Shown: positions 7,123 to 57,060 of the stretch, piece by piece
Layout of the letters: the number at the start of each line of letters is the position of its first letter
Numbering within the stretch: the first letter of the stretch is position 1
Assembly (NCBI RefSeq): GCF_964194155.1
Contig: NC_135901.1
Span: 25,854,001 to 25,918,000, forward strand
Direction: 5' to 3'
From: Cetorhinus maximus
Lineage: Eukaryota
DNA: 64,000 nt
Program-made: the position numbers and the translations under genes
The notes under the pieces: generated by a model
Seen by the model: only the letters and a program-made list of their open reading frames with translations
Told to the model about the DNA's origin: nothing
Database searches by the model: none

Positions 7123-8759
7123 TGTGTTTTTACAGACTTATCCGTCTCCCTTTAAACAAGCTCGGAAACTAGGGAACACTGAGACATTGGTTTAATGTTT
7201 TATTTTTCTAGTATATAACCCGTTGCACACAGAGACCATGAGATTACTGGATACTCACGGGAGGACTCATCAGAAATAGTTGTGAGCACATTATTCGAAT
7301 CTGATCAGTCTGTAATGTAGACATGGTCAACAACTCCAAGCTTTTGTGTATTGATCCTTTTTGACTTTAGTAACGTTTCGCTAACTTGATAACATCTCAA
7401 CACATTCTGGTTATTTGTTTATCAAACAGAATACAGTAACCCTTTAAATCTGTCATGAAACGATCATATTTTTCATAATATTATTGTGGGGTATTGTAAA
7501 GTAGGCTTATGTTTGTGTGTGTGGATGGTTCTGTCTGCGTGGTGATTTAATTAAATTAGAGATGGATAGACTGCAATATTCAAATTATCAAAGGAGTCAC
7601 GTATAAAAAGCGCATGTGAAATGCTAATGAATGAAGTAGGGTAAAGCCTTGGCAGATAGAATTTGCATTTTAAGATATGTGCAGAGGTGTTTGATTTTCA
7701 AAAATACATGATGAGATGTTGACAAGAAACAATATCAATAAGGCGGGTTATTATGTTGAGTTTTCCCAAAAGTACTGGCCATATTGACAACATAAAAGAT
7801 TTTCATCTTATGGGAAAAGTAAATGCCAAAGGCATGAAGGAACAATGGGGTTTAGAGATTAAAGAGGAAGAAATATATTTAAAGAAGGATGGAAGGCTGT
7901 GTGTGGGGTGGCCGTGTAATATCTGAAAGGTACAAGTGTAAAACCGACTTGGAGAAAAGCCTCTAGCCACTTTGCAGAAGTCTGCTATTCCTGTAGCCAA
8001 AGTTGTGTTAAAAGCCTTTGGAACACCACTGTCGTGTGGGTAACCTTGCTGATTGTCACAATAAATTTAAAATCTATTTTGGACTGTTGCCTTAAAGGGG
8101 GTGTCTGGTTAACTAGGAATTTGTAGTCTGGAGTCTGGTTAACTAGGAATTTTGGAAATTGTTATAATATGAAGTAACCATGTAACTGTAATCTTGTGTA
8201 TGTGATTTACTCTTTTCTTTTGTTAATAAATGTTTTAATTTGATTTCCAAAATCTCTAAAGGTGTCAGTGGACGTATCACTTCTGAATCAGTGCACAAAT
8301 CTTCTGGTACTAAATACAAATTGCAAAACCATTGTGCTAGCGTGGCCAAGGTTCCCTTGTGTATTTAGTCAGCCTGGCATATACCACCTGCCATATCATA
8401 ACATTTCATCTCGTAAATGATGTAATCCTCGTTAGTGAATCTGTGCGATATCGTCATTGCTCTTCTCATGGTTTCTACCTGAACATCTGATCTGAGAGAC
8501 TTAATAACGTCTTTGTATTCAGTTCATCTCCTGACCCTCTAATTCGGTGTCGAGAACATACATTGTCTGTTCCTCCAGATCATTAATGTACTGGTGTCTG
8601 TTCACAGGCTCTAATCTTATCCTCAGTATGACCTCCTAGAGCCTACTTCCATTGCAGATTCTTAGTTTAATGTGTGTAAGTGTCTGTACTGTCGAGAAAT
8701 GTTTAATAAAGTTATTAGAATTATTCAAGTCTTCCACACCTGGCCTCCCACTGTCTACA
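7123..8759 (-). mobile_element. 3' LTR of a decayed ERV, interrupted by a second LTR
   Basis: Minus strand: PPT gaggtggggaa then TGTAGAC..., AATAAA, ends ...aacaCA; uninterrupted paralog at 16938-17595 has a matching length once 7451-8403 is removed. Confidence 0.65.
7451..8403 (+). mobile_element. Solo LTR (nested insertion)
   Basis: TGTCATGA...TCATAACA terminal inverted repeat, AATAAA ~8225, absent from the paralogous LTR; TSD not clear. Confidence 0.65.
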
Positions 8760-8775
8760 TTCCCCACCTCGAGGC

Positions 8776-9750
8776 TCAAGAAGATTCTTCCTTTTGTAGC
8801 TTCGAAGCTTTTCTCTTGGTCAGTGCAAACATTTCCATTATATTCTTTCTCCTTGTAACCTGCCTTAGAATTCTGTCCATCCCGCAGACCATCAATAGAA
8901 GAGGAATTAGCATCATCTGTAATACTAGGAGGAAAGTAGATGCTATGATTATCCAGGGATGTTCTTCTGTATTTTACTCTATCTCCGACCAGGGATGATC
9001 ACCCAGGGTGACAATAGATCACTCAAATGTTATTGCTTGTTGTTTCCTGAGTCCCAGATGTTGTTCAATATTGATTTAAGCTTCAGAGAAAACCGTGAAA
9101 TTGTATGGCCAAAACCACTCAGAATCACTGGAGGATAATGTACACCCGTGTGAGTGTGAATGTGGGTCTCTGTGTTTGAGTGTGTGGTTGTGTGTTATGG
9201 GTATATGTGTTCCTGTGTGCAGGTTTCTGTGTGTGGGTGTCTGTGAGCATGTGTGCTGTTTCTCATTAACTGTAAAACAAACCTTCCCGTCTCTGACCAG
9301 ACAATGTTGGTTCTCCTAGAATCTCATTGAATGATTTGAATGGTACCATTCAGAGATTCTTCATCCAGAGTGAAGCTATAGGCTGACCGTGTGCTATGTA
9401 AAACCTGACATCTACACAACCAGGCCCCACTTCTCCTGGAACAACACAAACTGTCTGCTACTTTCTAGATCCCTTCCTTTCCCCTCACTATCATCCTCAG
9501 ATAGTTCACAAATTCCTTGTGCACATCATCCTCCAACTCATCTACGGTCTCCACTTTACTTTAAAGACTTCCATCGGTCTTACCAACAGTTAGCAATGGG
9601 ATAGCTGCTAACACAGGAATCAGTTCTGAAATACTGTCACTCTGATTTTAAGGCTTGCCGTGGGAGTACGTGGAACCAGATCTTCCCACCTCACACCAAT
9701 ACATATTCCCATCTGAGTTCAACATTTTAATGTGATTGTCCAATCCAGGA
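8776..9750 (-). pseudogene. Degenerate retroviral env-like relic (C-terminal part, TM, tail)
   Basis: Minus frame: ...KVETVDELEDDVHKEF...CCSRRSGAWLC...GRFCFTVN...DHPWSEI..EHPWIIIASTFLLVLQMMLIPLLLMVCG + basic tail; TGA at 8776 just before the PPT. Confidence 0.6.
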
Positions 9751-9754
9751 GACA

Positions 9755-9856
9755 AGTTCTGAAGAAGAGTCACACGGACTCGAAACATTAACTCTGTCTT
9801 TCTCTCCACAGATGCTGTCTGGCCTGCTGAGTTTTTCTAGCAATTTTTGTTTTTGT
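9755..9856 (+). mobile_element. Penelope-type repeat with minimal hammerhead-like motif
   Basis: agtt CTGAAGA a gagtc acacg gactc GAAAC att aact. Confidence 0.7.
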
Positions 9857-10135
9857 CAAGGAAACGTAGATCATTTAATCCCGTTAAACCTGATTGAGCT
9901 CCCACACCCCATGCACACAAACTGCAAGAGATTGTCTTCGAGACCAGTTGTTGCTGTATATATATGAACAGTATGAACCTTCTCCCTAACCTGTCCTAAC
10001 CCTTCCGTTCTTCATTTGTTGAAAACAGGGACTCTCCTTGTTCTAATGGTGACATTCCCTGCTTGCCCAGTTATTCTTTGAAGTCAGCCCTTGAATTAGT
10101 TCTGCATTGTTTCATCATGTTCCCACATTTCACTG

Positions 10136-11200
10136 ACAAATGTTGAAATGTTTGCTCCACACCCACAGGGTTTCATCTGTTTAAAGCCACAAACAGGAAG
10201 CTCCAGTTTTCTCCTGGAGTTTGAGACAAATCAGCTTCCAAAATGATGCAGAGTTTCAGCCAATGAGGGAGAGCCTGGTTCAGCCCCGCCCCTCATTCAT
10301 TCCGATTGGTCGGAGGGCCAGCCCTCTCCCGCGCGCAGTCCGCCAGCCCCGCCCCCTCTACCTATTGGTCCGGAACTGCTGCCAATCAGCCGAGCTGTGT
10401 GAGCTAGAGCATGCGCACTGCCGATGATGGTGATGAACTAGTTGGCTGTATCGAAATTCTCAGCCGGTGAGTTATCGCCGGCTGGGTCATGAAGGAGGGA
10501 AGGAATCGGCGGGTGGGTTGGGAGGATTCATAAACACCTCGTGTAGGCTGCAAGTCCCGAATACGAAGCTCGCGTATGGTATTTGAACCGGCTACAACTG
10601 CTCGGGCTTTTCCCCGAGACAGGCCCCAGTTAACGGCCGCCACCTTTATCCGGGATAATGTTGCAGCCGGGGCGCCTGCGGAGACAATGAGGGCGTTCTG
10701 GGATCAGCCCCGCCCCTCATTCACTCCGATTGGTTGGAGGACCAGGCTTTATCACTCCGGCCTCCAGCCGCATCCCCTCTTCCTATTTGTCCGACCCTCC
10801 CGTCAATCACTCCCCGGGCATTGTGAGCTGGAGTAACCGTTATGAATAATTATCAGCTCCTGGTTTGCAGCTGCGGGGCTTCTCCCTCCCGGGAACAGGC
10901 CCAGGTTAACGGCCGCCATCCTGGGTCAGCGAGTGGAGGATGGTTCACATCAGAGGATGGGGGACAATAAATAAGAGGTTACACTTTGGGCTCAAATCAA
11001 TGAGGAATCTGATCTGTGGGAAGGAAGGAAGGAACGAAACCCTGGGAGGTGGGCGGGGAGGATTCAGAAACACCCGCTGGAGGCCCCAAACCCCCAGCAA
11101 GAACCTGCAGGCCCCGCGTTTGTTGCATTTTAACGTTATGCGCGGCCATGTTGGTGAAGCAACAAAGAGTGGGCGGGGCTTCAGGGTCCCAGTGACCAGG
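10136..11200 (+). promoter_or_regulatory. CpG-rich promoter/first-exon region of ZNF gene B (cassette partly duplicated at 10704-10835)
   Basis: CCAAT, GC boxes, ATTGG, gcatgcgca, candidate donor ccg|gtgagt (~10467), YY1-like ggccgccatc (~10911). Confidence 0.75.
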
Positions 11201-11768
11201 AGAGAAAATGATTGATTCATTGATGATATTCTCACTCTGCACAGAGGCTTGAGAACGGAACCCAGCCAGAGTAGAGAGAGAGAGATAAAACTGGGAGTGA
11301 GGAAAGGAATGGTGTGATGTGTTTGGCAGGATGACCAACTCTCATGGAGAAAATTGAGGGACAGCCTGCCGTGGGAGTCCATACGAGTCGGTGGTGGGAT
11401 GCTGTGTGGGGTGCTGCCAGAGTTGGTGGGGCGGGGGTGGGGGTGATGGGGGGAAATAGCTGCAGGAGATGTTTGAACGCAGAAGCAGTAGACGGTAGGG
11501 TGCGACCAGAAGGTTCCAATTTGTGGGACAAATAGTGTTCCGGCACCAGGACAGTTGACTCTCAAATACGGAGGAATGCTGTAAAATACTGTACAGTTGG
11601 TCACTCTGGGGTTTGGATTCCAGCACGGGGAGGAGGGAGACTGTGTAGGGTGAGGATTTACTGCTTTGCAGGAACAAGAGGATAGCATGTTCCATAGAAA
11701 CTAGGTTTGTCTGTTGAGAATTTCTATCCTGTATTTACACTGATGAGTTTTGTAAACTCCTTTTCCAG

Positions 11769-12127
11769 GGTATTAGAACGGGTGGAGTTACAGGCAGGAA
11801 GCTCAAACCTAACATCACAGCATGGTCTGACAGAGTCACTCGATTCATCAGGACCTGAATAACATTAGCCTTTCAATGTGGAAGGAGAAATGTTTGTTCT
11901 GTCTGTGGGGAAATGTTTCAAACATTACGTGACTGGAAAATCACTAAGACACATACACCTGAGGGAGAGTGTTCCAGTGAACTGACTGTGGAAAGAGCTT
12001 TAACCAGTTACACTGCCTGGGGAAACATCAGATCATTCACAGTGGGGAGAAACTGTGCACGTGTTGTGTATGTGGACAAGGTTCAACTGATTGTCCAACC
12101 TGGAGAGACACAAAAAATACCGGCACC
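11769..12127 (+). pseudogene. Fossil coding leader and decayed fingers in the 5' part of the gene B exon
   Basis: After acceptor ttttccag reads VLERVELQAGSSNLTSQHGLTESLDSSGPE*H*PFNVEGEMF, then broken fingers. Confidence 0.7.
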
Positions 12128-12718
12128 ATGGAGAAACCGTGGAAATGTGAGGACTGTGGTAAAGGATTCACCTATTCATCCCGGCTGGAAATCCATCGAC
12201 GCATTCACACTGGGGAGAAGCCGTTCAGCTGTTCTGTGTGCGGGAAGGGATTCACTCAGTCATCCGGCCTTCGGTCACACCAGCGAGTTCACACTGAGAA
12301 GAAACCGTTCAGCTGCACAACCTGTGGAGAGAGGTTCAAGTCTTCATCCATCCTCACTGAACATCAGCGAATTCACACAGGTGGGAGACTGTTCATTTGC
12401 TTCGTGTGTGGGAAGGGATTCACTCATGTATTTGCCCTCCAGTCACACCACCGAATGCACACAAAGGAGAATCCATTCAGCTGTACTTCCTGTGGAAAGA
12501 GTTTCAGGCAGTCAACTGACCTCAATGAGCATCAACGCACTCACATTGGGAAGAAGCCATTCACCTGCTCCATGTGTGGGAAGGGATTCTGTTGGTCATC
12601 TCAACTGCTGACACATCAGCGAGTTCACACTGGGGAGAGGCCATTCACCTGCTCCTTGTGTGGGGTGGGATTCACTCAGTCACAACACCTGCTGAGACAC
12701 AAGCGGGTTCACAAGTGA
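12128..12718 (+). CDS. KRAB-less C2H2 zinc-finger protein (gene B), 7 fingers
   Basis: MEKPWKC start in Kozak caccATGg; 7 intact fingers; ends HK*. Confidence 0.88.
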   Translation: MEKPWKCEDCGKGFTYSSRLEIHRRIHTGEKPFSCSVCGKGFTQSSGLRSHQRVHTEKKPFSCTTCGERFKSSSILTEHQRIHTGGRLFICFVCGKGFTHVFALQSHHRMHTKENPFSCTSCGKSFRQSTDLNEHQRTHIGKKPFTCSMCGKGFCWSSQLLTHQRVHTGERPFTCSLCGVGFTQSQHLLRHKRVHK

Positions 12719-13169
12719 CTGCAGGAGATGGACTCTGCTGTTATTGCTGCTGTGAATCACACCTAGGACTGATAGTCTGGCAATATTAGGTTTGTTTCTG
12801 CTGATGTTAACAACCTTGGCTGGAGTTTAATATTCTGGAGATGTCACTGACTTTCAGGGCTGCAATGTCCGTTTTTAAAAGCACCATTTGTGGTCTTTCC
12901 CTTGAATACAAGAACTCTCCCCGGGAACTAGTTTACAATAAAATTTTGGATTTTACTTCAATCCTAAATTGATATTTGATGCAAAATCTACAATTCAGTG
13001 TCAGAAAGGTTCCAGTGATGAACATCTCCAGTTATAAAGTGCTGATTAATCCTTGCTGACAATTCTTACTGACTTGCACATTCTTTAGTGATACCTTCAT
13101 TATGAAATTAAATTAATAAGGAACGTTAAACAAAATAGTGAAATCTTTTACAGGCACATCAAGAAAAGC

Positions 13170-14068
13170 TTCATCAATCAATATTGATATTGTTGAAGCT
13201 TGGAAATCGCTGAGTTCAATCATTTCTGACACAGCAGCAGCAACATTTGGTAAAGGTGGAACCCACAACAAAGACTCAGCAGAGATGACATCTGTCATTG
13301 AAGCAAAAAGCAAAGCCTACCTGATGCACAACATAAACCCAACAGCTAGAGCAATGCACAACTTGAAAGTAGCCAAGATGATTGTGCAAAAGACAGGGAG
13401 ATACAGTATAAAAACACTGGATCAGCCTATGTCAAGAAATCCAAATTGCCAGTGACAATGGAAATCTATGTGCAATGTATGATGGGATCAAAAGGGCACT
13501 TGGTCCGACCATCACCAAAGTTGACCCCTGAAATCACAGATGGTGAAGTACTCACTGACAAAAGTAAACAGATATCCCACAGGGCTGAACACTACTGTGA
13601 GCTGTACCCCCGTAAGACAGACATTTCCCAGTCTGTTTGTCTCTCTCCTGCAGCTTCCCATCATGTTTGAGTTGGATAAAGAACCTGTATCTTTTGAGCT
13701 TGACCAGCCCAATTATTCTTAGCAAGCAGGAAAGCACCCGGCCAGGATGGAGTTCCAAGCAAACTGCTCAGGTACAGGAAGTCCCAGGTTTTGTGAGCAC
13801 CTCCTTCTCTGGAAGGTAGCATCTGTTCCACAGGACTTGCATGATGCAGAAGTCATCACAATATACAAAAACAAAGGTGAGAGTGGAGATTGCAACAATT
13901 AGAGAGGCATCTCACTCCTTAGCGTCACAGGGAAGACCTACACTACGGTCATGCTTAAACACTTTATCTTTTTGCAGACCGAGTGTATCCAGGAACACAG
14001 TGCAGTTTCTGTGCTGGCAGATCTACAGTGGAAATTACCTTCTCCATACACCAGCTACAAGAGAAGCG
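13170..14068 (+). mobile_element. RTE-clade LINE fragment
   Basis: VPQDLHDAEVITIYKNKGESGDCNN*RGISLLSVTGK, an RTE RT N-terminal motif. Confidence 0.8.
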
Positions 14069-14379
14069 TACAATTGGGATTTAAAATGCTGCCAGCTTAC
14101 GTGCTGAGAAAAGTGAAACGTTATAATTACTGAGTGAAAGTAAACCTTTTAGCATGAATCACAATTTACTTGTAGAATTATAAAAGGCACCGAAAAGTTG
14201 GATTCCCTAAAGAAAAGCTTCAGCCTTGAAGTTATGATCCGGAACTTACAAGCTGTAGGGAGCTCCACCCTCTTTGACTCTTTTTGGTCTAAGAAGGTTG
14301 AAAGCATTTGTTAACCTATGACTGCTAACTTATTTAGTTTTAATTTTCTTCATTTATATTACAGTCATTTGCAAAGGCG

Positions 14380-15686
14380 TGTGATGAAAGCTCAACTCAC
14401 CTTTGGTTCAGAGGTCAGGAACTCCAGTTCGGAAATGCATGTCAGATGACCTGAGATGGAGCGCCATTATCTTGGTGTGCCAGGGAGCAGGACACGGAAG
14501 GGGGAGAGGGAGAAGTTCCCAAACCAGGGAGAAATCCCAAAAAGTAGTCCCAGGTAAGGGATGAAGATAGGGGACATGAATAGGTCCCCTTAAATGAGGT
14601 AAAGCAAAGGAGCAGATAAATAGGCTCAGAGTTAAATAAGGAGCTGCAGTGAGCAGACTTGTAGTGAAGTGGGCTTGAGAGAAGCCCTGAAGATCTGAGA
14701 AGGCAGCTGAAGGTCGGTGACTTGGGTACCTCTTTGAAGCAGTGGTGTTCTGCTTGACACAGCCAAAGATCTGAAATTGTGCTTGGAATGTGATGCTTGA
14801 GTTTACTCGAGAATCCAGGGGAAAGGAATCTCAGGAGATATTGAAACCCTGTGAGGTGGGCCATTATTGAAACTGCCCGAGTGGGAGTGACTTTTGGAAA
14901 GAATTCCAAGGTTAGATCTTCAGATGTGGAGATTAGAAACCCTCATGAGAAAGACAAAGTTTCAGTGGAATTGGTTGGCTCACAATGTGACAAATGTCTG
15001 GGTGGGTTCTGGAGCAATCCATGGAATCTGCTTTGGTTGCATCTGTCATTGAAAATTCAGAGTGCGTCAAAGAGATAGGACAGGAATTTTAAGCTCTTTG
15101 ATAAGAAAAATTGCAAGGCCTTTGGGGACAGTAGTTAACTGAATAATCAGTTATAGAACTCAGTAAAGTGATCAGTTTAGCAGAGGTGCTACTGGAAGGT
15201 GGAGTTTAGGGAACTAATTTGTTCATTTTGCAGTTGAAGAAGCAATGAGTTTAAAGTGCAATTTTTGGGTGTCTCGGGGAGAGATACAAGTTGCGTGATA
15301 AGCATCGAGTGAATGTTCAGGAATTCACCGGAAGAAAACTGTTTGCAACTGTGCCAGTCCCAAGTGAGAAGATTTTGTGTCAAGCTAGTGGTAACTCTTC
15401 AGTAGTTTATGTGTCTGTAAAGATATTTCTGGGGTAAAGGAATAACATCAATCTGAAGTGTCTTCTTTTGTTGGTATTGAGATCTTTCCAACCTTTTTGT
15501 CTGGTGTAATATAGTTCTTTTTTTCCTGTTTAGTAACTAGTTTATTCCTTGCATTAGAAGTTCATCAACAGACTCCTGTTGACGAACTTTCCTTCACAGT
15601 TTCTTCAAAAAAATTTAGGATCTGTCAAACCAGGATTCACTCTGGGATCTTATTGTCAAGTTTTAACATCAGCTGGGATTGTAACA
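14380..15686 (+). mobile_element. Probable solo LTR (~1.3 kb)
   Basis: Begins TGTGATG, ends ctgggattgTAACA; no ORF; TSD not evident. Confidence 0.5.
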
Positions 15687-15849
15687 GTAATCTGAAGAGA
15701 GAACAAAAGAGCTTGGAGAAACAAAAATGGTGTTTGGTTCATCTATGATCTGAAAAGAAAAGTTATGTAAAGTTGACACAATTGTGCACATTTGAGAACA
15801 TTTGCTCCAACTTTCTGCAAACAAGCGAAGACGTTAACCCCTGTCCCAC

Positions 15850-16921
15850 TGTGACAGTTTGAACTAAAGACTTTGCCTTTTAAAGATTTGGATTTATCCC
15901 ACTTGCTGTCTTTCAAGACAAAATGTTTGATAATGGGAGATTTGGGAGTTAGGTCTAAACTGAATTGTAAGTATTTCCATCTCTGATGTAAAAATGCCAT
16001 ACTACATGAATATTGAATTGGACAGTAAAGTTCCTCCAGGGCTCATGAATGAGATAGAATGGTAATTGATGGGATGGCCCACTTAGAATAAAAGACAGAA
16101 AATCATACCAACAAATGGAAGTTGGAATAACTCATCCTGGGTATAGTTCAAGAGAATAGATTAATCTGGTATCAATGTACATTTAAATGGAAGAAAGGAA
16201 AGTGTAGATGAGACTAGTAAATTGATAGTGTTTTGTTGAAGATGTTAGTATCCTTGCCTCTGAACTTTTCAAGGAAACTGCATTTAATAGTCTGGCCACT
16301 ACCTGAGGCATTGCAGTGGGAGATAAGCCAAGATCGTCAGACACCCTCTTGATCTTTTGGTAAGATTACCTGAAAGTCAAGAGTGGCTTGTATCATACTG
16401 CATGTGTAGCATGATGTTGGGATACTGGTGTGAGTGTGCAAATGTGATTTGCTACATGTGAAGTAATTAACATGTGGAAATGTATGGTGAACCTGCTCTG
16501 AGGAATGAGTCCCAGACATGCCCAGGAACTCAACAACACAACAACATAAAGTGATTAATGTGGTTAGTAGAATGAGACTTTTTATGTTATCAGTGCTCCA
16601 TAGAGAAACAGACTTTAAAACAATCAGGATAGAATTAAACACATTAAATTCACCCTCCTAATGTTAACATTGAGTGGTTCATTGTTACACTGGGTGATCA
16701 GCCCCACTTGCAGATAGTGTGAAATACAGGACAACATCCCTGGATAATCACTGCCTCTAATATCCTCTTGGTATTACCGATGATGCTAATTTCCCTTAAT
16801 GTTCATGGTCTGGTTGATGAAGAGAATCCAAAGACAGATTACAAGGGGAAAGAATATAATGGAAATGTTTGCACTGACCAAGAGTAAAGCTTTGAATCAA
16901 CAAAAGGAAGATCATTCTTGA
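15850..16921 (+). pseudogene. Degenerate env-like relic, paralog of 8776-9750
   Basis: ...QHPWIITASNILLVLPMMLISL TM segment; nucleotide homology to the reverse complement of 8776-9030; followed by PPT 16927-16937. Confidence 0.55.
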
Positions 16922-16937
16922 GCCTCGAGGTGGGGAA

Positions 16938-17595
16938 TGTAGACAGGGAGGCCAGGTGAGGAATATCTGAATAATTCTAATAGCTTTATTAAACATTTCT
17001 CAAAGGTATGAATCTGTAATAGAAGCAGAAGGTCCTATTAAGGATAAGATTAGACAGGAATAGATCAATGATCTGAAAGGACAGATAATGTATGTTCTCG
17101 ACACTGAGCCAGAGGGTCAGGGGATGAACTCAATACAAAGACATTATTAAGTCTCTCAGAAAGAGATGGGATTTTCAGGCACAAACTGTGACAAAAGAAA
17201 TGACATTATCTCTCAGACTCACTTAAAGAGGATTAAATTATTTACAAGATGAGTTCATTAGATTGATCTTTTTCCATTTTAATTTACAAAAACAGAAGAT
17301 GTTGATATTTGTTATCAAGTTAGCAAGACCTTACTAAAACAAAAATGGTTCAATGCACAAAAGCTTGGGGCCCTTGACCTGGTCTAACTTTGACCAGGGT
17401 AACCAGATTAGAACGATGTGCTGATCGCACTCACAACTCTTTCTGATGATTCCTCCCATGAGTATACAGTAATCTCATAGTCTCAGTATGTAGTCACTTG
17501 TGTAATAGAAATAAACATTAAACAACGACCCATTGTTTCCTACTTTCTGAGCTTGTTTGAAGGGGTCTGGGTCCAGATAATTGTGTAAGAACACA
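16938..17595 (+). mobile_element. ERV 3' LTR (~660 bp)
   Basis: Starts TGTAGAC after PPT gaggtggggaa, AATAAA ~17510, ends aacaCA; inverted paralog of 7123-8759. Confidence 0.65.
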
Positions 17596-17699
17596 ATGTA
17601 TAATTAGCCTTTTAGAGGCCAACATCCTGTTACAATTTGAAATTAATCCAGAGATCTCTGAAAAGCAGTGGATCCATTATCAAATTTATTTCAACATAG

Positions 17700-18460
17700 G
17701 AAGCTGGTAAATGACTGACTGATTCTTTTCCCATGCACACAGCAGGTGAATAGCCTCTCCCGTGTGTGAACTTGCTGGTGTAACAGCAGGCGAGATGACT
17801 AAGTGAATCCTTTCCAGCAGACAGGTTAAGTGAATGGCCTCCCCCCTGTGTGAGTTTGCCAATGACTTTCCAGCTTGGATAATTGAGTTCCCACAGTCCT
17901 CATATTTTCACATATTCTCCATGTTGTCAGTGTTCTTGTGTCTCTCGAAGTTGGATACCCAGTTGAAACCTGGTCCACACACAAAACATGTGTACGGTTT
18001 CTCTCTGCTGTGAATGGTGTGATGTTGTCCAGGCTGTGCAACTGGTTAAAGCTCTTTCCGCAGCCAGTGCACTGGAACACTCTCACTTGGGTGTGTGTCT
18101 TGGTGCTTTACTCCTTGTGATGAGAACCAAACTTAATGTGCCATCTGCACCATTCCTCTCCTCCACTCCCAGTTTTCTCCCTCCTACTACTCTGGCTGGG
18201 TTCAGTTCTCACTTGTGTGCAGACTGGTAATGAAATCAATGACTCAATAATTTTCTCTCCTGGTCACTGCAACCCTGAAGCCCCGCCCACTCCCTGTTCC
18301 CTTACCAAGATGGCCACGCATTTGCTGGGCTACTTCCTGAAGCAAGATGGCAGCCATCAACCTGGGCCTGTTCCTGGGAAAAAGCCCCAGAGTGGCAAAT
18401 GTGGGCCCTGCAGGTTCTTATTCAGGTCCTGTGGCCTTCACCAGGTTTTTCTAAAGCCTT
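17700..18460 (-). pseudogene. ZNF pseudogene C (deleted and frameshifted) with CpG-decayed upstream module
   Basis: RVFQCTGCGKSFNQLHSL...TMEN..LESHWQTHTGGRPFT*; 18140-18460 is homologous to the gene B intron module. Confidence 0.8.
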
Positions 18461-18759
18461 GATCCCCTGCATGCCACCAGCTCACCTGCCTGAAGAGCGC
18501 ATCCAGCACTTGCATGGTTCTGGTCAAAGCAACACAGGGCATGCTTCAGATACTGTCCAGCACTGCACCTACACACTGAGCTTGTGTGGAGTGAACAGGG
18601 CACATTTCCTTCTGCGGGGATTGTTGGGCAAAAACCCTGACATTGAAAATCCCAAATAGTAAATAATGGTTGATCTCTCTGATGCCATTGAGATGCACGA
18701 ATCAATTAAATCAATAAAATTAATTTTAAAAGTCTCACAGATATTCAAGTTCACTGGAA

Positions 18760-18880
18760 CTCTGACATGGCACAGGCCTGAATGAGATGAATCACAGCAG
18801 AATCCAACATCCGCAGTCACAGATGAACTCACTGGTGTCTCATTTCTTTCCATACACAGGATATTTAAACAGCCTCTCTC
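18760..18880 (-). pseudogene. Isolated last-finger plus 3' UTR remnant of a ZNF gene
   Basis: Reverse complement gagacaccagtgagttcatctgtgactgcggatgttggattctgctgt matches the ZNF stop/3' UTR consensus. Confidence 0.6.
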
Positions 18881-18975
18881 CATTACGAATGTTTTGTGAA
18901 TTAACTACTTTAGTCTTTTAAAGCATTTCTCAAGGTGAGAGAATTTAATGTGCCTGTTCCAATGTGGAATTCACT

Positions 18976-19256: not shown

Positions 19257-19357
19257 AATATCGAGCAGGGTTCAGGGAGGTTAGATCCCAGGCACTGCAC
19301 TGATGTCATAAAGCATCACCGTTCTATCCATCTGGTCCTCTCTTTGTCCCTTTAAAG

Positions 19358-19628: not shown

Positions 19629-19629
19629 T

Positions 19630-31989: not shown

Positions 31990-32820
31990 CAGCCCTGCTG
32001 GTGGAGTCAGAACAGTCTGCTGTCATAATGCAAGAGGTGAATGGAGAAGATTTTCCAGTTGGACAGCTCTCAGACATACTCACCCTTGTGCAAAGATCGA
32101 TTGCCCAGTGTACTAAGCAGATATGAAGAGTTACACAGAGTTACCTGGTAGAGTTTAATTCAATAATTCTACATACCCCACAGACCACAGTGACATTTTT
32201 AATACAGGGTCAATTAAGGGAGTATCGCTGATGTAATAGAGTAGATGAATTAATATCCTGCAACCTCACAATTAAGAATTGGCTGGGATGTTGCAGTATG
32301 AAAGAACCTCACATACATGTCAGGTGAAAGAGGCCACGTACAATGAACCAGTAAAAGCCACATCATTGTGAGACTCCACTGTTCATCTGGATGGATCTTT
32401 GTTTTATAAACAAGGTCTGTGCCAGACTGGTTCTGTGTCTTTGATACCTCATGACAGCTGTAATATCCTTATTAAATAACCACCACAATATTCAGCCTAG
32501 AAAGCATCACAGCCTTTCAAACTGTTACTGAAAGAAGCACCAACTATTCTGAAAGCTCCTCTAGTTGTAATTCCCTTATGCAGAATCTTTCATCCTGGCA
32601 AAAAACATATGGCTTCTCGACAACAGAAAGGAAACCACTCAGTCACCACTACAAACTCTGAATGATTCGGGGTGTTGCTGGTAAGTGTCCAGGGCAAATT
32701 GCTGTTTGTCAGCAGCAGGAGTTAGTGAAGAGAGTGATGGTAATAACCAGGCAGACTGGCTCACCAGGAAAGCTGCCCCAGAGGGGATCCCATGGGACCC
32801 CCCAAATCACAATCATTGGC
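31990..32820 (+). pseudogene. Degenerate retroviral pol relic (RT connection/tether + RNase H)
   Basis: SAVIMQEVNGEDFPVGQLS..L..VQ..I..C; IILHTP; SR*INILQ; VHLDGS..YK.G...TG; YSES...CNSL...L..W...GFST..RKPL; GNNQADWLTRKAA. Confidence 0.7.
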
Positions 32821-36039: not shown

Positions 36040-36490
36040 ACCTGACAGCTCACAATGCCCGGCTGATTGACGGCAGAACCGGACCAATAGGCAAGGAGAG
36101 GGCGGGGCTGTCGGCGCGTCGAAGCGGCTGGTCCTCCAACCAATCGGAGTGAATAAGGGGCGGGGCAGGGCTGGGCTGAGTGAAGCATGCGCAGTGTGAT
36201 TAATGGCGATGGGGAAAAGCTTCTTTCTAGGATTCGCATTCGGTAAAGGCGGAGAGGGTAGGATGGCGGGGTGAAGCGATGGCGCAATCCGGCCGGCGGT
36301 TGAATAGGCTTCGTAAATGTTATGTAAACCGTAAAGCTCGAAAAACAACCAATCAATACCCGGGACCGTGACGCTCTTTTGCACAGAGCAGGGCCGCCGC
36401 TTTCACCCAGTTCCAGACCCGGATTAACGGCCGCCATTTTTATTGGGGGCAATTTGCAGCAGGGCGCATGCGCGGCCTCCATCTTTGTAG
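36040..36490. promoter_or_regulatory. CpG-rich promoter between head-to-head genes E and F
   Basis: Promoter cassette in inverted orientation (36045-36175), then gcatgcgcag, candidate donor tcg|gtaaag, YY1-like ggccgccatttt, gcgcatgcgc. Confidence 0.7.
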
Positions 36491-44010: not shown

Positions 44011-44019
44011 TGACTTCAG

Positions 44020-47312: not shown

Positions 47313-47485
47313 CCTGTGATTCCCTGAGTTTATTAACCCTCCCCCTCCAGACCCTTTGAGCTCTCTATTGTTTTTCAATGTCCTACTGGCCCTGTGATTC
47401 CCTGGGTTTATTAACCCTCCCCGCTCCAGACCCTTTGGGTTCTCTATTATTGGACTCTCTATTGTTTTTCAATGTCCTCCTGGCC
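47313..47485. repeat. Tandem duplication of about 78 bp
   Basis: cctgtgattccctg.gtttattaaccctcccc...ctctctattgtttttcaatgtcct twice. Confidence 0.8.
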
Positions 47486-48110
47486 TTGTACCTGATCCAA
47501 TAAAAACCCTCCTTACATCACACAGGGAACAGCTTTAGACATGTCCTGACTTTTCACCTCAATCTTATTCTGCTGAATGATCTCATTGACCGTTCCCTTT
47601 CTCTCGATCAGTCCGTCCACCATCTCTTTTCTGGATTTCACTCCTTCTTGTTGTTCCAGGATTTCATCTCTCTGCCTTTTATTTCTTTTACTGAAGATTC
47701 CTGTCCATTGCTGCCTCACAGCCTCGTCCTGTTCCCACATATTCTCCATGTCTAAGTGCTTCCCAGCAGCCGTGGCCCCTATTCCAGCCCAATCACCGAT
47801 CCCTCTCTTCCCTCCACCCTTTTTACTGGTGTCACTATCACAGGGACGATTTCAGTGTTTTCCCAAAACTGCCTTAACACCGGGGTCATGGCTACTGGGT
47901 GGTCATTGTCCACCCATCTCTCTCCCTGCATTCTGACTTCTGAAATCCCCGGATAATTCCCTTATCATCCGAACATCAAGGTCCTTGTAGATGGGATGAC
48001 ATAACCTTGGGGATGGGTGTGTGGTATTCAGGGCACATAGTACCGGAACTATTTTAAATCTTGTATCATTATGTAGGCTTTCTGAGTACAAGTGATGATT
48101 AAACCATTTA
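47440..48110 (-). pseudogene. Retroviral env-like relic (cleavage site, fusion peptide, heptad)
   Basis: LHNDTRFKIVPVL..LC; KKGGGKR|GIGDWAGIGATAAG; helical ...TVNEIIQQNK...AVPCVM*GGFLLDQVQ. Confidence 0.6.
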
Positions 48111-48129
48111 TGGAACCAATTTCATGTGG

Positions 48130-49110: not shown

Positions 49111-49845
49111 TCTTTTGTGTAATCTCATTCTGTAATTTAACCCTTGGAGCCCAGATCACTCAGGTAAGTATGTGCTACACTCCCTCCAAGGCCATTCTAT
49201 CCTTCCTGATGTTTGTTGCCCAGAACTGAACACTGTTCTTCAGGTGTGCTTGAACCAGGGTTTGTGTGTCTCAGCATTTTTCCAGTCACACTTGAAATCT
49301 TGTCAGAATCACACAGTGCAGAAGAGGCCCTTCAGCCCATCGAGTCTGCACCAATAATGAGAAACACCTGACCTACCTACATAATCCCATTTACCAGCAC
49401 TTGGCCCATAGCCTTGAATGTTGGTCAAAATGTCAAGGCCCATTGGTCCCTAATGGGCCCAACTCTTTCCCTGATTATCCTCTTCCCATTGGCATTGAAA
49501 AAAAAAATTTAGATACCTGCAGTTAAATCTTTCAGACACTAAATTGGAGATTTTTCACCAAATATCAATTTACGATTGTAGTAAAAGTTCATAATTTTAT
49601 TGTCAAGGGGTTCCTACTGAAAGTTTTTGAAATTAAGGGGAAGGATCACAGATGGTGCTTTTAAAAAGGGACACTGCAGTCCTGAAAATCAGTGACATCT
49701 CCAGAATATTAAACTCCAGCCAGTTATAGTGTTGTTAACATCAGCAGAAACAAAATATTGCCAGACTACCAATACTAAACAAGCTTACAAGCAGCAAGAA
49801 CAACAGGATCCAACCCCTGCAGTCACTTATGAACTTGCTGATGTC

Positions 49846-50748
49846 TCAGGAGGCATTGTGACTGAGTGAATCCCTTCCCACACACCGAGAGTTGAATAAC
49901 CTCTTCTCAGTGTGAGTGCGTTGGTGGGTCAGCAGGTTGAAAGACTTTGCAAATCCCTTCCCACACAGCGAGCAAGTGAACGGCCTCTCCCCAGTGTGAA
50001 CTCGCTGGTGTGCAGTGAGATTGGATGACCGACTGAATCCTTTCCCACATACGGAGCATGTGAACGGTTTCTCTGCAGTGTGAGTGCGTTGGTGAGCAGT
50101 GAGGTTGGATGACTGCCTGAAACTCTTCCCACAGGAAGTGCAGCTAAATGGCTTCTCCTCAGTGTGAATTCGCTGGTGTCTCAGCAGGTTGGGTAAAACT
50201 GTGAATCCCTTCCCACACATGGAGCAGGTGAACGGTCTCTCCCCAGTGTGAACTCGCTGGTGTAAAATGAGGGACGATGCCTGTCTGAAACTCTTTCCAC
50301 AGGAAGTGCAACTGAATGGCTTCTCTTCAATGTGAATTCGCTGGTGTGACAGCAGGTGGGATGACCCAGTGAATCCTTTCCCACACACAGAGCAAGTGAA
50401 CAACCTCGCTCCAGTGTGAACTCGCTGGTGTGTCAAAAGGTGGAATGACTGAGTAAATCCCTTCCCACACTCGGAGCAGATGAATGGCCTCTCCCCAGTG
50501 TGAGTGCGTTGATGTACAGTGAGTGCTGAAGAGTGCCTGAACCTCTTTCCACAGGAAGTGCAGCTGAATAGCTTCTCCTCAGTGTGAATTCGCTGGTGTG
50601 ACCAAAGGCCAGATGACTGAGTAAATCCCTCCCCACACACAGAGCAGGTGAATGGCCTTTCCCCGGTGTGACTGCGTCGATGGTTTTCCAGCAGGGATGG
50701 GTAACTGAATCCTTTCCCACAGTCCTCACATTTCCACGGTTTCTCCAT
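49846..50748 (-). CDS. KRAB-less C2H2 zinc-finger protein (gene H), 10 fingers plus a frameshifted 11th
   Basis: MEKPWKC start; acceptor at 51107-51109; close paralog of gene B. Confidence 0.85.
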
Positions 50749-51699
50749 AGTGTGGGTGTCCTTGTGTCTCTCCAGGTTGAATAATCAGTTGAAACCTTGT
50801 CCAGGCACAGAACATGTGTACAGTTTCTCCTCACAGTGAACGATGTGATGCTATTTCAGGCTGTTTAACTGGTTAAAGCTCTTTCCACAGTCAGTTCACT
50901 GAAACACTCTCACTCGGGTGTGAGTGTGTGTCTCGGTGTTTTTCCAGTGACACTGAAGTTCAATATCTTTCCCCACAGACGGAACAGACAAACATTTCTC
51001 CTTCCACATTCAAAATCTGAGGATATTCAGGTCCTGGTGAATTGAGTGACTGTCAGAAAATGTTTGGTTTGAGTTTCACATCTGCAAATCCTTCCCTTCT
51101 AATACCCTGGAAAATGAGTTTATAAAAGTCATCAATGTCAGTCCAGGATAGAAATTCAGAACAGACAATTCTAGTTTTAATGGAATATTGTTTTCTCTCT
51201 TGTTCCCCCAAAGCTGTAAATCCCCGTCCCACACACTCTCCCACCTCCCTGGGCTGAAATCCAAACCCATCTCACCATCTCCACCATTTCTTTCCTCCAC
51301 TCCCAGGTTTCTCCCTCCCACTCCTCTGCCTGGCTTCAGTTCTCCAGCTCCTGTCTGGAGACTGACAATAAAATCAATGAATTAATCATTTTCCCTCCTG
51401 GTCACAGACACCCTCAAGCCCCGTCCACTCTCTGTTGCATCATGAAGGTGGCCATACATGCGTCTGCTCCCAGATGAACCAAGATGACAGCTGTTAATCT
51501 GGGCCTGCTCCTGGGAAGAAGCCCCAGCGCTGCAAACGCAGGACCTGCAGGCTCTTATTGGGGGTTTGGGGTCTCCAATGGGTGTTTCTGAATCCTCCAC
51601 GCCCACCTCCCAGAGTTTCCTTCCTTCCCAGAAATCAGAGTCCTCACTGATTTCAATTGCTGAACACCCTCTCCCTGGCAGGACCGTACTGAGTTTCCA

Positions 51700-54525
51700 T
51701 ACATACGAACATTGGAATTAGGAGCAACAGTAGGCCATTCGGCCCCTCAATCCTGCCCCACCATTTGATAAGATCACGGCTGATATGATTGTGGCCTCAA
51801 CTCTATTTTCCTATTTATCCCCTATAACCTGCGACTCCTTTGTCAATCGAGAATCTATATAGCTCAGCCTTGAATATATTCAATGACCCAGCCCCACTGG
51901 TCTCAGGGGAAGAGAATTCCACAGCCTATTGGCCCTCTGAGAATGAGTGATAATGAGCTGGAACTTGCTGCCTATGAGGGGGGATGGCAATGGACATGAT
52001 GAATGATCTCAAAAGGAAATTGGATAAACACTTGAGGGAAATAAATCTGCAAGAATACAGTGATAGAGCAGGGAAATGGGACTGACTGGATTGCTCTGGA
52101 GAGCTGGCAGGGACTCAATGGGCCAAACGGCCTCCTTTATGTCATAATGTCTCGGTGACTCTTGCATGCAATCTTGCCTTGAAATTTAACCCTTCGGGTT
52201 CAGATATTATTCAGGTAAATCTGTGCTACGCTCCCTCCAAGGCCATTCTATCCTTCCTAAGGTTTGCTGCCCAGAACTGAACACGGTTCTCCAGGTGTGC
52301 TCTAACCAGGGTTTGTGTGTCTCGGTGCTTTTCCAGTCACACTGCTTCAGGATCATCGAATAGTCACAGCACAGAAGGAGGCCATTCGGCCCCTTGTGTA
52401 TATTCTGGCTACCTAAAGGAGATATCCATCTGGTGCCACTCCCCTGCCTTCTCTCTGTAGCCCCACACATTCTTCTTTTTCAAACAATACCATCATTTCC
52501 TCTTGAATGCCTCGATGGAATCTGCCTCCGCCGCACTCTCAGGCAGTGCATTCCAGAGTCTAAACACTGGCTGTGAGATAAAGTTTTTCTCATATGACCA
52601 TTGCTTCTTTCCCCAATTCCCTTCAATCTGTGTCCTCTGAATTTCCATCCTTCCACCAATGAGAGCAGCTTTTCCTTGTTCACTCTGTCCAGGCCCCTCA
52701 TGACTTTGAACACCTCTATCAAATCTCCTCTCAACCTTCTCTTCTCCAAGGAGAACAGTCCGGACTTCTCTAATTTATATTTGTAACTTCAGGGATGAGG
52801 GACTTCATTCTCATGAATCTTTTCTGCACTCTCTCTAATGCCTTCACATCCTTCCCAAAGTGTGGTACCCAGAAATAGACACAATACCCCAGTTGAGGCC
52901 GAACCAGTCTTGTATCCAAGTTTAACATAACAACTTTGCTCTTGTACTCAATGTCCCCATTAATAAACCCCAGGATACCGTGTGCTTTATGAACTGCTTT
53001 CTCAACCTGCCTTGGCACCTTCAACATATACACATATACATCCAGGTCCCTCTGCTCCTATACCCACTTTAGACTTGTATTCTTTCTTTTCTATTGTCTC
53101 CCAGCGTTCTTCTGACCAAAATGAATCATGTCACACTTCTCTGCATTACATTTCATCTGCCACTTGTCCATCCTGTCTACCAACCTGTCTACATCCTTTT
53201 GAAGTTCCACACTATCGTCCTCACAGTTCACAATGCTTCCAAGTTTTGTAATGTTTGTGAATTTTGAAACTGAGCCCTGGATACCAAGGTGTAGATCCTA
53301 ATATTTTTTCAGGAGTAGCAGAGCTCCTAATGCTGATCCCTTGGGAACTCCACTATAAATCTTCGTCCAGTCCAAAAAACAACCATTAACCACTGCACCA
53401 CTACTCTTTGTTTCCAGGCGCTCAGCCAATTCCGTATCCATGTTGTTACTGTCCCTTTGATCACATGAGCTATAACTTTTCTCACAAGTCTGTTGTGCAG
53501 CACTTTATTAAATGCCTTTTGGAAATCCATCTACACCACATAAACAGAATTACCCTCATCACCCCTCTCTGATGCCTCATCAAAAAACTCAAGTAAGTTA
53601 GATAAGCCGGTTCTGAGAAAGAGTCATATCGGACTCGAAACATTAACTCTGTTTCTCTCTCTACAGATGCTGCCTGACTTGCAGAGTTTTTACAGAACTT
53701 TGTTTTTATTTTAGATAAACATGATTTACCGTTATTAATTTTGTCCTGAATTATCGTTTCTAGAAGCTTCCACACCACAGAGGTTAAACTGATAGACCTG
53801 TAGTTGCTGAGCTTATCTTTAGACCCTTTCTGAACAAGGGTGGAACCTTTGGAATTCTCCAGTCTTCTGACATCACCCGAGTATAAGGAAGATTGAAAGG
53901 TTCTGGCCAGTGCCTCTGCAATTCCCACTCTCACTTCCCTCAATATCCATGGATGCAAACCATCCTGGTACATTGTCCATTTTAAGTACAGACAGCCTAT
54001 CCAATATCTCATCAATTTTAAACCCTTTAGGGGTCTCAACTACCTTCTCTTTCACCATGACCTGTGCAATTTCTTTAGTAAATACAGGTGCAAAGTATTA
54101 ATTTAATACATCAGCCATGCCCCCTGCCTCCATGTGTGAATCCCCTTTGTGGTTCCGAATCAGCCCCACCCATCCCTTCATCATCCTTTGTATGTCTATA
54201 GAAGACATTTTAATTTCTTTCTATGTTAGCCATCAATCTCTTTTCATACTCTCTCTTTGCTTCTCTTAATTGCTTTTCCAATTCTGCTCTGAACCTTTTT
54301 TTATTCAGCTTGGTTCTACTTTACACCTGACATCTGCAATAAAGTACACTTTTTCTTCTTCATCTTAATCTCTGTTGTTTTTGTCATTGTGAGAGCTCTG
54401 AATTTCTTTCCCCTATCTTTTGCCTCATGCGTCCAAACTATCTCTTATTTCAAATCAGCCAATTTTTCAGTTCCAGTTTCACCTGCCAACCTTTGTTTCC
54501 AACTTAACTGGGCTTACCTGAAATC
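51700..54525 (-). mobile_element. Composite of CR1 fragments (mostly minus strand) with a Penelope-type insert at 53608-53713
   Basis: EKRRLRGDLIEVFK, LVRPQLGYCVYFW, DFQKAFNKV, NYRSISLTSVV. Confidence 0.85.
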
Positions 54526-54529
54526 TTTG

Positions 54530-54820
54530 CCTACAGACAAGCTGTTTCACTTCTACATTCAAACTTTGGTGATATTCAGGTTCTGATGAATCGAATGACT
54601 CTGTCAGATGTTTGGTTTGAGTTTCCCGTCTGTCAATCCCCCACTTCCAGTGCCCTGTAAGTTCACAATAACCATCACTATATTTCCAGGATGGAAACTG
54701 AGAAGGGACAAACATTTCTCTTGATTTAAGTTTGCTGTGTGTAAATCCTCCCCTTCTAACCCCCTGTAAAGATAATTTCCAAAATCCATCCCTGTCAGTC
54801 CAGGATAGAAATGCACAATA
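54530..54820 (-). pseudogene. Fingerless ZNF leader remnants (two tandem acceptor + leader copies), possibly 5' UTR exons of gene H
   Basis: Acceptors at 54764-54766 and 54655-54657, followed by GLEGEDLH.. and ggaaactcaaaccaaacatc. Confidence 0.6.
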
Positions 54821-54849
54821 TTCTCTCCTCCTGTTGACAGGGAAAGGAA

Positions 54850-55710
54850 TGTCCGCGCATGCGCCCTGCTGCACAAAATGGCAACCGTTAATCCGGACCT
54901 CTCACCGAGGAACGCGGATCGGGGCAACTGCCGCCCACAGATACCAGCGAGGAACCGGTAGCTTGTTATTCTGGCTTCAGAACGGCTCAAGGTGTTTACG
55001 AAACCTGCCCGTCCACCCGCCGGCTGCATCTCTCCCTCAATTCCGCCCTTTATCTTACCGGCTGCGGACCTGACAAACAAGCAGCTTTCCTTCGCCCTCA
55101 CTCACACTGCGCATGCTCCAGACTCGAGGCGGAATTGCACCTGCGCACTGATGTCCAGCTCCAGCAGCCACACTGCGCATGCTCCCGTCATAATACCCGG
55201 GTGATTGACGGCAACTCTGGACCAATAGGAAGAGGGGGCAGGACTGCAGGACCAAAGGGGCGCGGCTGGCCCACCAGCCAATTGGAGTGAATGAGGGGCG
55301 AGGCTGAATCAGGATCTCCCTCATTGGCTGAAACTCTTCATCATGTTGAAAGCTGGTTTGCCTCAAACTCCTGGAGAAAACTGGACCTTTGTGTTGAGAT
55401 AAAAACAAAAAACTGCGGATGCTGGAAATCCAAAACAAAAACAGAAATACCTGGAAAAACTCAGCAGGTCTGGCAGCATCGGCGGAGAAGAGTACAGTTG
55501 ACGTTTCGAGTCCTCATGACCCTGTTCTGTTGAAGGGTCATGAGGACTCGAAACGTCAACTTTGTTCTTCTCCGCCGATGCTGCCAGACCTGCTGAGTTT
55601 TTCCAGGTATTTCTGTTTCTGTTTTTGTTTTGGACCTTTCTGTTTGTGGCTTTAAACAGATGAAACCCTGTGGGTGTGGAGCAAATATTTCAACATTTGT
55701 TACTGAAATG
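54850..55710 (-). promoter_or_regulatory. CpG-rich promoter cassette, probably for gene H
   Basis: Inverted paralog of 10136-10700; CCAAT x3, GC boxes, tgcgcatgc repeats, candidate donor ccg|gtaaga (~55058). Confidence 0.75.
55391..55630. mobile_element. Palindromic Penelope-type insertion (inverted terminal repeats)
   Basis: Arms ~55430-55522 and ~55535-55633 are nearly perfect complements; tggaccttt duplicated at 55382-55390 and 55631-55639; absent from paralogous promoters. Confidence 0.85.
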
Positions 55711-56049
55711 TGGGAACGTGGTGAAACAAGCCACAAACTTAAAGGAATAACTGGACAGACAGGGAATGTCACCATTAGAACAAGGGGAGTCCTTGGTTTC
55801 AATAAATGAACTGGCAGAAGGGTCAGGACAGCTCAGGGAGAAGGTTAATATTGTCATCATTCAGAACAACACAGAATGTAAAGTAAAAGCTGATCTCAAA
55901 GACAATTTGTTGTAACGTGTTTGGAGGGGATGTGCTGAACCAGGTTTAAAGAGGTTAAACATGTTTTCTATATTGCACAATCACATTCAAAGCTTCAAAG
56001 GTGAGACATGAAAGCCCTCGACATTAATCTTGACAAGTGGGAAGCTGAC

Positions 56050-57060
56050 TGATGATTGATGCAATTGGAAACACCAGCTGTGGGCAGGAGTTCACCACCA
56101 CAGCGACATGTGGTTTCAGAAACTCCAACACAGACAAACAAGGTGTCAGCAGAGATCATCCCGCAACACAAGTAAGGAAAACCTTCATACGAGGCACTTT
56201 TGCCTTTATAGAATCTGCTTGTTCAGCCATCAGATGAAGTGCAGCAGATCGTCTCATCTGTTCTCATTAAAGTTCTGAGGCTGCAATCCCATCATCTCTC
56301 GCAGATGGACAGATGCTAAACATATGGGACAATCACATTAAAATCTGGAACTCAGATGGGGATAAAGATTGGTGTTAGGTGGGAAGGTCTGGATCAATGT
56401 CTTACTCCAGGAAGCTTTAAAATCAGAATGACAGCATTTCAGAAATTATTCCTGTGATATCAGTGATCCCATTCCTATCTGTTACTAAGACCGATGGAAG
56501 TATTTAGTGGAGACAGTAGCATGCTGGAGGATAATGTACACAAGGGTTTTCTGAACTGAGGATAATAGTGAGGGGAAAGGAAGGGATCTTGAAAAAAAAA
56601 AGACTCTTCATGTTGCTACAAAGGACATGGGACCTTCCACTTGGTTTGACACAACACACACACACAAACCCACATGGATACACTTCCTATCGATCAGGTG
56701 GACCAGGTTATGCCTCACACCGCTAACCCGACTACTGACTAAGACTGGCGATAAAGTATCAGTGTCTGTAAGGACCAAAAAGTTATAGAAATTCAAGTAA
56801 TCATTATGCTCCAGGGACTCAAAGCAGTTTTGACTACCTAATTCCAGCACTTTCTCTGAACCTTAATCTATAATGGACAACATATTGAACTGACACAATG
56901 GCAAAAAGTTAAGCCACCAACAGACATTAGGTGGTCTATGACCACTCTGGTGATCAGCCCTGGTGGGAGATTTTAGACAATACAGAACATCTTTGCATAA
57001 TTGCAGCCCCTACTTTCCTATTGGTAATATGGATAATTCCCCTTATATTGATGGCCTCGG
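56050..57060 (+). pseudogene. Degenerate env-like relic, inverted paralog of 8880-9750
   Basis: Colinear nucleotide homology; GDQPWWEILDNTEHLCIIAAPTFLLVIWIIPLILM TM. Confidence 0.55.

Follow-up and report, generated by a model that had tools for sequence, protein, structure and literature searches.

Env and pol fragments of probably several endogenous retroviruses, likely SnRV-like, in a zinc-finger gene cluster of Cetorhinus maximus

Introduction

In mammalian KRAB-zinc-finger (ZNF) gene clusters, fragments of endogenous retroviruses (ERVs) are carried along in ZNF segmental duplications. In this study, we analyzed a window of 64,000 nucleotides (the whole stretch of DNA examined, positions 25854001 to 25918000 of contig C24) from the 4.0-Gb genome of Cetorhinus maximus. 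The window is a cluster of C2H2 ZNF arrays on a contig of 65 Mb, and it contains decayed pieces of retroviral genes, here termed relics A to E. It is highly probable that these relics are fragments of the envelope (env) and pol genes of at least three ancient retroviruses, likely of the snakehead retrovirus (SnRV)-like group and with an Env predicted to have the paramyxovirus F fold, and that they likely multiplied as passengers when the ZNF units underwent segmental duplication. The ZNF-linked fragments, likely derived from several SnRV-like, F-type ERVs, share with those of the mammalian KRAB-ZNF clusters their transport in segmental duplications; the host class and the virus group are different, and hundreds of copies go back to a few insertions.

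The closest described elements are the SnRV-like ERVs of the elephant shark (CmiERV lineage I; PMC4422223), which resemble those studied here in the reverse transcriptase (RT) signatures of linked elements, in their cartilaginous-fish host, and in the order of env, polypurine tract (PPT), and long terminal repeat (LTR); the amplification of fragments in cis by host duplication, seen here, is not described in the available passages of that report. Lokiretroviruses are similar in having an F-like Env with a furin site, heptads, and a transmembrane segment (TM) and in their dual RNase H (available parts of PMC7947760); however, their RT signature differs, they were not found in the chondrichthyans screened according to the same parts of that report, and the Env family considered here also carries an N-terminal immunoglobulin-like annotation in its Chiloscyllium member (GCC29952.1, here called P0001). 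Among class I fusogens, foamy virus Env and the F proteins of paramyxoviruses and pneumoviruses are the top structural matches of the predicted family model, although the identities are 9 to 16%, the TM-scores are low, and neither PF00523 nor the foamy Env family was matched in Pfam. Foamy ERVs have reportedly been co-opted in geckos, a possible precedent for the capture of an F-like env gene.

Relics A and C are decayed retroviral env genes

Relic A (type-1 env; 8776..10137, minus strand) extends from the heptad region through the TM and a basic tail and contains stops and frameshifts. It was matched by P0001 in tblastn (E = 7e-19) and by an env profile (55 and 29 bits), and reversed controls gave no matches. 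Relic C (type-1 env; 55664..57070, plus strand) is interrupted at approximately 55956-56321 and ends past the TM, where another element truncates it. The two relics are 68 to 78% identical at the DNA level over the ectodomain and pre-TM region (8776-9744 on the minus strand for A and 56324-57070 on the plus strand for C) and represent one insertion lineage. The original prediction had grouped them with a third piece, relic B, as three paralogous relics; homology was borne out for A and C, whose 5' ends in tblastn reach 10137 and 55664, beyond the limits first assigned to them, but only the 3' part of B is of type 1. A short high-copy repeat lies within relic A at approximately 9755-9856, and the element that truncates relic C is bounded by inverted repeats (57069-57202 and 58034-58152).

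Pfam searches with nine frames of A, B, and C returned nothing relevant, neither piece A nor alignment A3 found a match in word-based protein searches, and PDB sequence searches gave no significant envelope match. A strict first-look scan of the genome with PF00523 also gave no matches, and since its control was silent too, it was uninformative. A profile built from the 28 single-frame relic pieces of alignment A3 was searched against 1.84 billion proteins and identified four at an E value of 0.001 or lower: P0001 (8.8e-16), P0002 from Pelodytes (5.8e-9), P0003 from Xenopus (6.6e-6), and one unnamed protein. Comparison of the relic profile with a 13-member family alignment gave an hhalign probability of 99.4% (E = 4e-21). 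When the genome was searched with P0001, 64 matches were found over many large contigs (strict first look; of 2886 candidates, 61 were scored). Among the 14 loci whose flanks were analyzed, RT, RNase H, or integrase (IN) pieces lay upstream of env on the same strand in L137, L138, L139, L140, L143, L144, L147, L148, and L150, and no pol pieces were seen in L141, L142, L145, and L146; the dispersed elements of this env family carry protease, RT, tether, RNase H, and IN, in that order, ahead of env. Relics A and C, together with relic D described below, are decayed retroviral env genes.

The 3' ends of the relics carry the corresponding signals. The PPT of A (8760..8770, minus strand) is followed by TG at position 8759, and in B the PPT opens an LTR-like and flanking segment (16927..17711, plus strand), so that in both relics the tract directly precedes the TG of the 3' LTR. 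As had been predicted, A and B run through the TM, basic tail, and stop into the purine tract and TGTAGAC; they share an exact 17-mer (8754-8770 and 16927-16943) and align at 72 to 76% from the pre-TM region through the tail, stop, and purine tract into the ZNF flank. A similar purine tract occurs 3' of env in the dispersed relics L143, L144, and L145. Because the env family lies behind pol and is followed by a like tract in these elements, the env is retroviral and the PPT call is right; the ERV origin given in the original prediction is supported. Matches to the PPT 17-mer on contigs C6 and C7 (with no module match on C7) were set aside as unrelated; on C6, the 17-mer occurs in 11 exact copies within 26 kb (G000:C6:76575578-76601212), probably as an unrelated tandem repeat.

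The LTR-like segment of A consists of a 5' part (8406..8759, minus strand) and a remainder (7107..7450, minus strand) that enters the 3' end of a ZNF array, its LTR boundary not being established. The two are split by a dispersed repeat of 955 bp that was inserted later (7451..8405); this insert is absent from L031, L032, L035, and other copies, matches loci on C3 and C14, and has high depth in the contigs of run X10. The boundary at 8405 was considered as the LTR end and rejected, since it is the edge of the insert. The LTR-like segments of A and B do continue into the 3' flank of an antisense ZNF, as proposed, and the ZNF junction is the same in both. The proposed TG..CA LTR of 660 to 680 bp is unsupported, because the CA end is present only in A of five copies (B reads TGTA and three paralogues read AGTA) and because the paralogue groups lose homology approximately 435 to 466 nt past the PPT. 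No solo or paired LTR was found among the 40 of 66 and 40 of 50 candidates that were scored.

Copying of the relics with ZNF units

Nearly all scored copies of the relic types lie on the ZNF contig, C24, or on high-numbered contigs: 150 of 150 for type 1 (594 candidates), 149 of 150 for type 2, the type of the 5' part of B (1032 candidates), 48 of 48 matches for D (534 candidates, 40 scored), and 53 of 53 matches for E (203 candidates, 40 scored). A 40-kb block containing A, B, E, and D occurs at least five times; its order, orientation, and spacing are kept at four other places on C24 (20.07-20.11, 21.62-21.67, 22.45-22.50, and 24.97-25.01 Mb), three of them inverted. Contig confinement and the recurring block together make it well supported that the relics were copied along with the ZNF units by host duplication, and the amplification foreseen in the original prediction stands. 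Six type-1 pieces form one clade (support 99/97), and a 3.8-kb context around D is common to all seven paralogues compared, at 88 to 94% identity. Homologous pieces were also found in contigs of runs labeled as four other organisms, which indicates that the association between ERV and ZNF is old. As single fragments off the ZNF contig, we observed a type-1 piece on C19 (L096:1500-2110) and a type-2 piece on C3 (L083:8124-8708).

Relic A is convergent with a C2H2 ZNF array (5202..6914, plus strand); another array (11859..12718, plus strand) is divergent from A and lies upstream of B, and B is convergent with a truncated ZNF fragment (17697..18098, minus strand). A repeated GC-rich element of the ZNF gene heads, which is possibly a shared bidirectional promoter, abuts the 5' break of relic A (10126..10438), and type-1 copies begin beside this same element; the matching element next to C (55153..55710), itself split by a repeat, gives a shared 5' junction. 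At the other end, where a comparison of the junctions had been suggested as a check, the run into the ZNF is common to 11 of 21 PPT-anchored copies; the others are considered below. The relics are neutral-looking markers with which the expansion of this 65-Mb shark ZNF contig can be dated and ordered, and they indicate that hundreds of ERV copies came from a few insertions through duplication of the host DNA and not through reinfection.

It might be argued that selection keeps the fragments as regulatory parts of the ZNF unit, with a function in 3' end formation or in antisense or divergent transcription. The env begins right beside the ZNF-head element, the ZNF sense strand of the LTR-like segment contains an AATAAA visible by eye, and the other-organism contigs with type-1 homologues also contain the LTR-like flank, three of the four runs being guessed to be RNA. 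However, these contigs show neither strand nor level, the copies are variously deleted, interrupted, or truncated, and the segment is missing from most ZNF arrays in the window. Such selection is unlikely, and passive copying is the preferred explanation.

Envelope fold and virus group

As stated in the original prediction, there is no CX6CC motif: CX6-7CC is absent from the three env-strand frames of A, B, C, and D. As seen in alignment A6 and in the secondary structure, the family combines a basic cleavage site and a glycine-rich peptide with long helices, a Cys-rich beta region, a second heptad, and a TM. Every part of an F-like fusogen (furin site, fusion peptide, first heptad repeat, Cys-rich beta domains, second heptad repeat, and TM) is present. 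In a Foldseek search with the low-confidence AlphaFold model of P0001, all 42 of the matches listed were paramyxovirus or pneumovirus F or foamy virus Env, with 103 matches at an E value of 0.001 or lower and human parainfluenza virus 3 (hPIV3) F as the best (E = 2.2e-7). Of the fold checks proposed earlier, the structural comparison thus pointed to F, whereas the sequence profiles against the PDB remained nonsignificant. On the basis of this predicted model, we have good but not full confidence that the env family is F-like.

The RTs of the related elements L137, L144, and L150 read LD(I/F)(S/A)NGFWSI and LPQGFH, by eye the same as SnRV (supplement of PMC7947760). By our by-eye count, these RTs agree with SnRV at about half of roughly 130 positions; the best PDB matches of the RT were foamy virus and then murine leukemia virus-type enzymes. 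The RT linked to the env family therefore looks SnRV-like, not lokiretroviral, an assignment made from signatures compared by eye, without a reference tree, and from the pol of linked relatives. If it holds, the family would place F-type envelopes in SnRV-like retroviruses as well, in addition to foamy viruses and lokiretroviruses.

The original prediction had favored an F-like env of the lokiretrovirus type, and of this only the F-like part appears to stand. Derivation from lokiretroviruses would fit their F-like Env (available parts of PMC7947760), a layout of the Loki-Xtr Env that is similar by eye, and the organization of the related elements, in which dual RNase H and a Ty3-like tether (PF17919/PF17917 and PF00075 in L137 and L138) follow an open reading frame (ORF) that looks coiled-coil by eye and has no Pfam match. 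The RNase H and tether arrangement is, however, not unique to lokiretroviruses, and the LPQGFH of the three RTs differs from the PFG(Y/L) of 24 of 24 lokiretrovirus RTs in the supplement of PMC7947760. In addition, the screen in the available part of that report lists none of three orectolobiform genomes as positive, and SnRV-like ERVs are known from the elephant shark (available passages of PMC4422223). A lokiretroviral origin is quite improbable, and an SnRV-like one is preferred.

Dispersed ERV families of the same env class and with an SnRV-like RT (L137-L140, L149, L150, and others) occur on many large contigs, and one dispersed ERV has a 445-bp direct repeat with 91% identity. Long env ORFs of the family are also present in frogs (P0002 in Pelodytes; P0003 and P0005 in Xenopus), where they form a clade of their own that may represent a second capture.

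Number of proviruses represented

Relic B consists of two parts with different affinities. Its 3' part (16665..16921, plus strand) holds the type-1 pre-TM region, TM, tail, and stop and is 76% identical to A, and its 5' part (type 2; 15725..16643, plus strand) belongs to a second family of about 1000 candidate copies and resembles neither A and C nor the intact env in DNA comparison or tblastn. In 8 of 20 loci (L021-L026, L033, and L034), the type-2 segment leaves the match to B at 16643 and enters other sequence, in which matches to the tail and PPT of two dispersed ERV relics were found, L143 (E = 3e-20) and L147 (E = 3e-16); elsewhere, the type-2 family is equipped with a TM-like stretch, a tail, and a PPT of its own. 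Because the type-2 segment continues into another tail and PPT, B is a chimera of a type-2 5' part and a type-1 3' part, and because approximately 19 matches cover nearly the whole 1081-bp query at 86 to 100%, the chimera has itself been duplicated. The 5' part probably derives from the strongly degraded env of a different provirus; its Cys-motif match to the env family was weak (hhalign probability, 14.6%), and the env profile found no match to it in 34 loci. It was also considered as an integrase, a candidate that was dropped since the DNA matches were weak (E = 0.09 to 0.14) and there was no protein-profile match.

Two further relics had not been part of the original account. Relic D (type-3 env; 47468..48082, minus strand) spans the end of the surface subunit (SU), the cleavage and fusion-peptide region, and the first heptad and was found by tblastn (E = 2e-26) and by the env profile (97 bits). 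Relic E (approximately 32007..32780, plus strand) is a retroviral tether and RNase H fragment detected by the pol profile at 15 and 17 bits, with no match in reversed controls and with an RNase H end motif seen by eye.

A single provirus that was amplified with the ZNF unit, as originally proposed, would explain the sequence and the junctions that A and C have in common with the 3' part of B, and D and A/C do cover partly complementary parts of env. Where D and A/C overlap, however, they have no DNA match longer than 13 to 17 nt and a protein identity of 23 to 38%, while type-1 copies are 77 to 100% alike (53 matches, including overlapping loci), and type 2, with its own tail and PPT, is closer to L143 and L147. 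With the A/C type, the 5' part of B, and D mutually unalignable as DNA, with B recombinant, and with a pol fragment present as well, a single source is very improbable.

The preferred reading, that at least three SnRV-like retroviruses contributed, would involve the integration of several proviruses into an ancestral ZNF cluster. Deletions of most of the SU, together with the 5' LTR, gag, and pol, would then have followed, presumably before amplification, because the paralogues share the 5' break beside the ZNF-head element, and tandem and inverted duplications would have multiplied the units. Relic B would stem from a rearrangement in which a type-1 3' end, along with its ZNF flank, was attached to a 5' part of type 2. 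The relics would make no protein and would drift, and the LTR-like segment would now form the ZNF 3' flank.

Several observations weigh against this reading. The copy searches scored the best 40 to 150 candidates each, and dispersed copies are possibly among the remainder. Seven of the 21 PPT-anchored copies enter a different shared flank after approximately 435 to 466 nt, two break at approximately 355 nt, and one is a fragment on C19; the type-1 virus could have inserted twice, which would account for the second downstream flank. Neither a 5' LTR nor a target-site duplication has survived, and the env identity of type 2 is weak. No RT belongs to the relics themselves, and the support for grouping them with the pol-bearing L143 and L144 is 83/81. 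With regard to the fold, the P0001 model is poor (predicted local distance difference test [pLDDT] score, 45.6; predicted template modeling score, 0.32), with Foldseek TM-scores of 0.08 to 0.16 and root mean square deviations of 22 to 38; it also represents an intact relative, the model from the relic alignment having a pLDDT of 31. The best F match of a sequence profile in the PDB, again hPIV3 F, was nonsignificant (E = 0.33), and other profiles gave no F match.

An intact paralogue on contig C7

The genome also contains an uninterrupted env paralogue of 754 codons on contig C7 (G000:C7:31581171-31583429, minus strand; L135:7169-9430, minus strand). Its protein has RKRR at position 287 and a TM at approximately 696-725. 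Its identity amounts to 91.0% with Scyliorhinus torazame XP_072333160.1, 88.3% with Heterodontus francisci XP_067889054.1, and 86.1% with the Chiloscyllium punctatum protein. Across the four shark species, the orthologues are 84.8 to 91.0% identical without gaps, with 754 amino acids in three species and 739 in C. punctatum. The three shark orders that these species represent diverged about 200 million years ago or earlier. Features of a gamma- or epsilon-type Env are lacking: neither the relics nor the gene contain CX6CC, and no Pfam TLV_coat match was obtained.

Third codon positions account for 21 of the 35 ORF differences among those listed (P = 0.001), and no indel is listed inside the ORF, a pattern consistent with purifying selection. 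Contigs of three of four runs guessed to be RNA span the ORF largely or completely, with approximately 10% differences, and end at 9431-9434, at a pyrimidine-AG acceptor-like site two bases before the ATG, one of them with a loose end of 50 nt; the fourth run, X2, contains only small pieces of the ORF, and no RNA source for the ORF was listed. The gene appears from these contig ends to be spliced. No gag or pol was found within 40 kb (by tblastn or by four profiles), and given this and the apparent splicing, the gene is likely an old domesticated env. Broken copies on C10 (L141) and C9 (L142) are 42 to 73% identical to it over pieces, with no pol found beside them; the C9 copy groups with the C7 orthologues, and both are possibly old duplicates or retrocopies.

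Although the closest intact proteins identified include that of the C7 gene, the relics are scarcely credible as its pseudogenes, since protein identity is only approximately 26 to 42%, the relics fall in a separate clade, and they carry a PPT that is not seen at the 3' end of the gene; they are best read as a sister lineage of the gene. A broader scenario, which we hold to be about evenly balanced, is that an F-type env of an SnRV-like lineage was domesticated in a galeomorph ancestor and survives as this spliced 754-amino-acid gene under purifying selection, while sister proviruses became permanent in the ZNF units, possibly shaping ZNF 3' ends.

Like syncytins, percomORF, and the chondrichthyan syncytin-like Envs (10.64898/2026.05.06.723177), the C7 gene is intact, conserved, apparently spliced, and without gag or pol; unlike them, it lacks CX6CC, and the surveys that recovered those genes needed immunosuppressive domain (ISD) or CX6CC-type motifs. 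The chondrichthyan survey was run with syncytin queries and made CX6-7C(C) a requirement (10.64898/2026.05.06.723177), and the study that posits percomORF to be the most ancient ERV-derived gene still intact made an ISD motif a condition; no ORF of 2262 or 2265 bp is present in the available table of that study (PMC12813294). Syncytin-based shark surveys are built to miss the env class of the C7 gene, which is a candidate very old captured fusogen or entry-blocking gene. If the domestication scenario is true, the capture would be older than that of percomORF and among the oldest of captured env genes. Neither the ZNF-linked amplification nor the C7 gene was described in the literature searched, which did not extend to Wang and Han 2020, reportedly a vertebrate-wide survey of co-opted retroviral genes, which may contain the gene.

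Other features of the ZNF cluster

The GC-rich element at ZNF gene heads is also present at 10682-10833, 1464-1773, and 36047-36177 of the window. The repeat that splits the copy of this element next to relic C is a 208-bp inverted repeat (90%) at 55426-55631, a short high-copy element. Finally, a histone H2B-like frame was recognized by eye within the ZNF cluster (L040:3295-3822).

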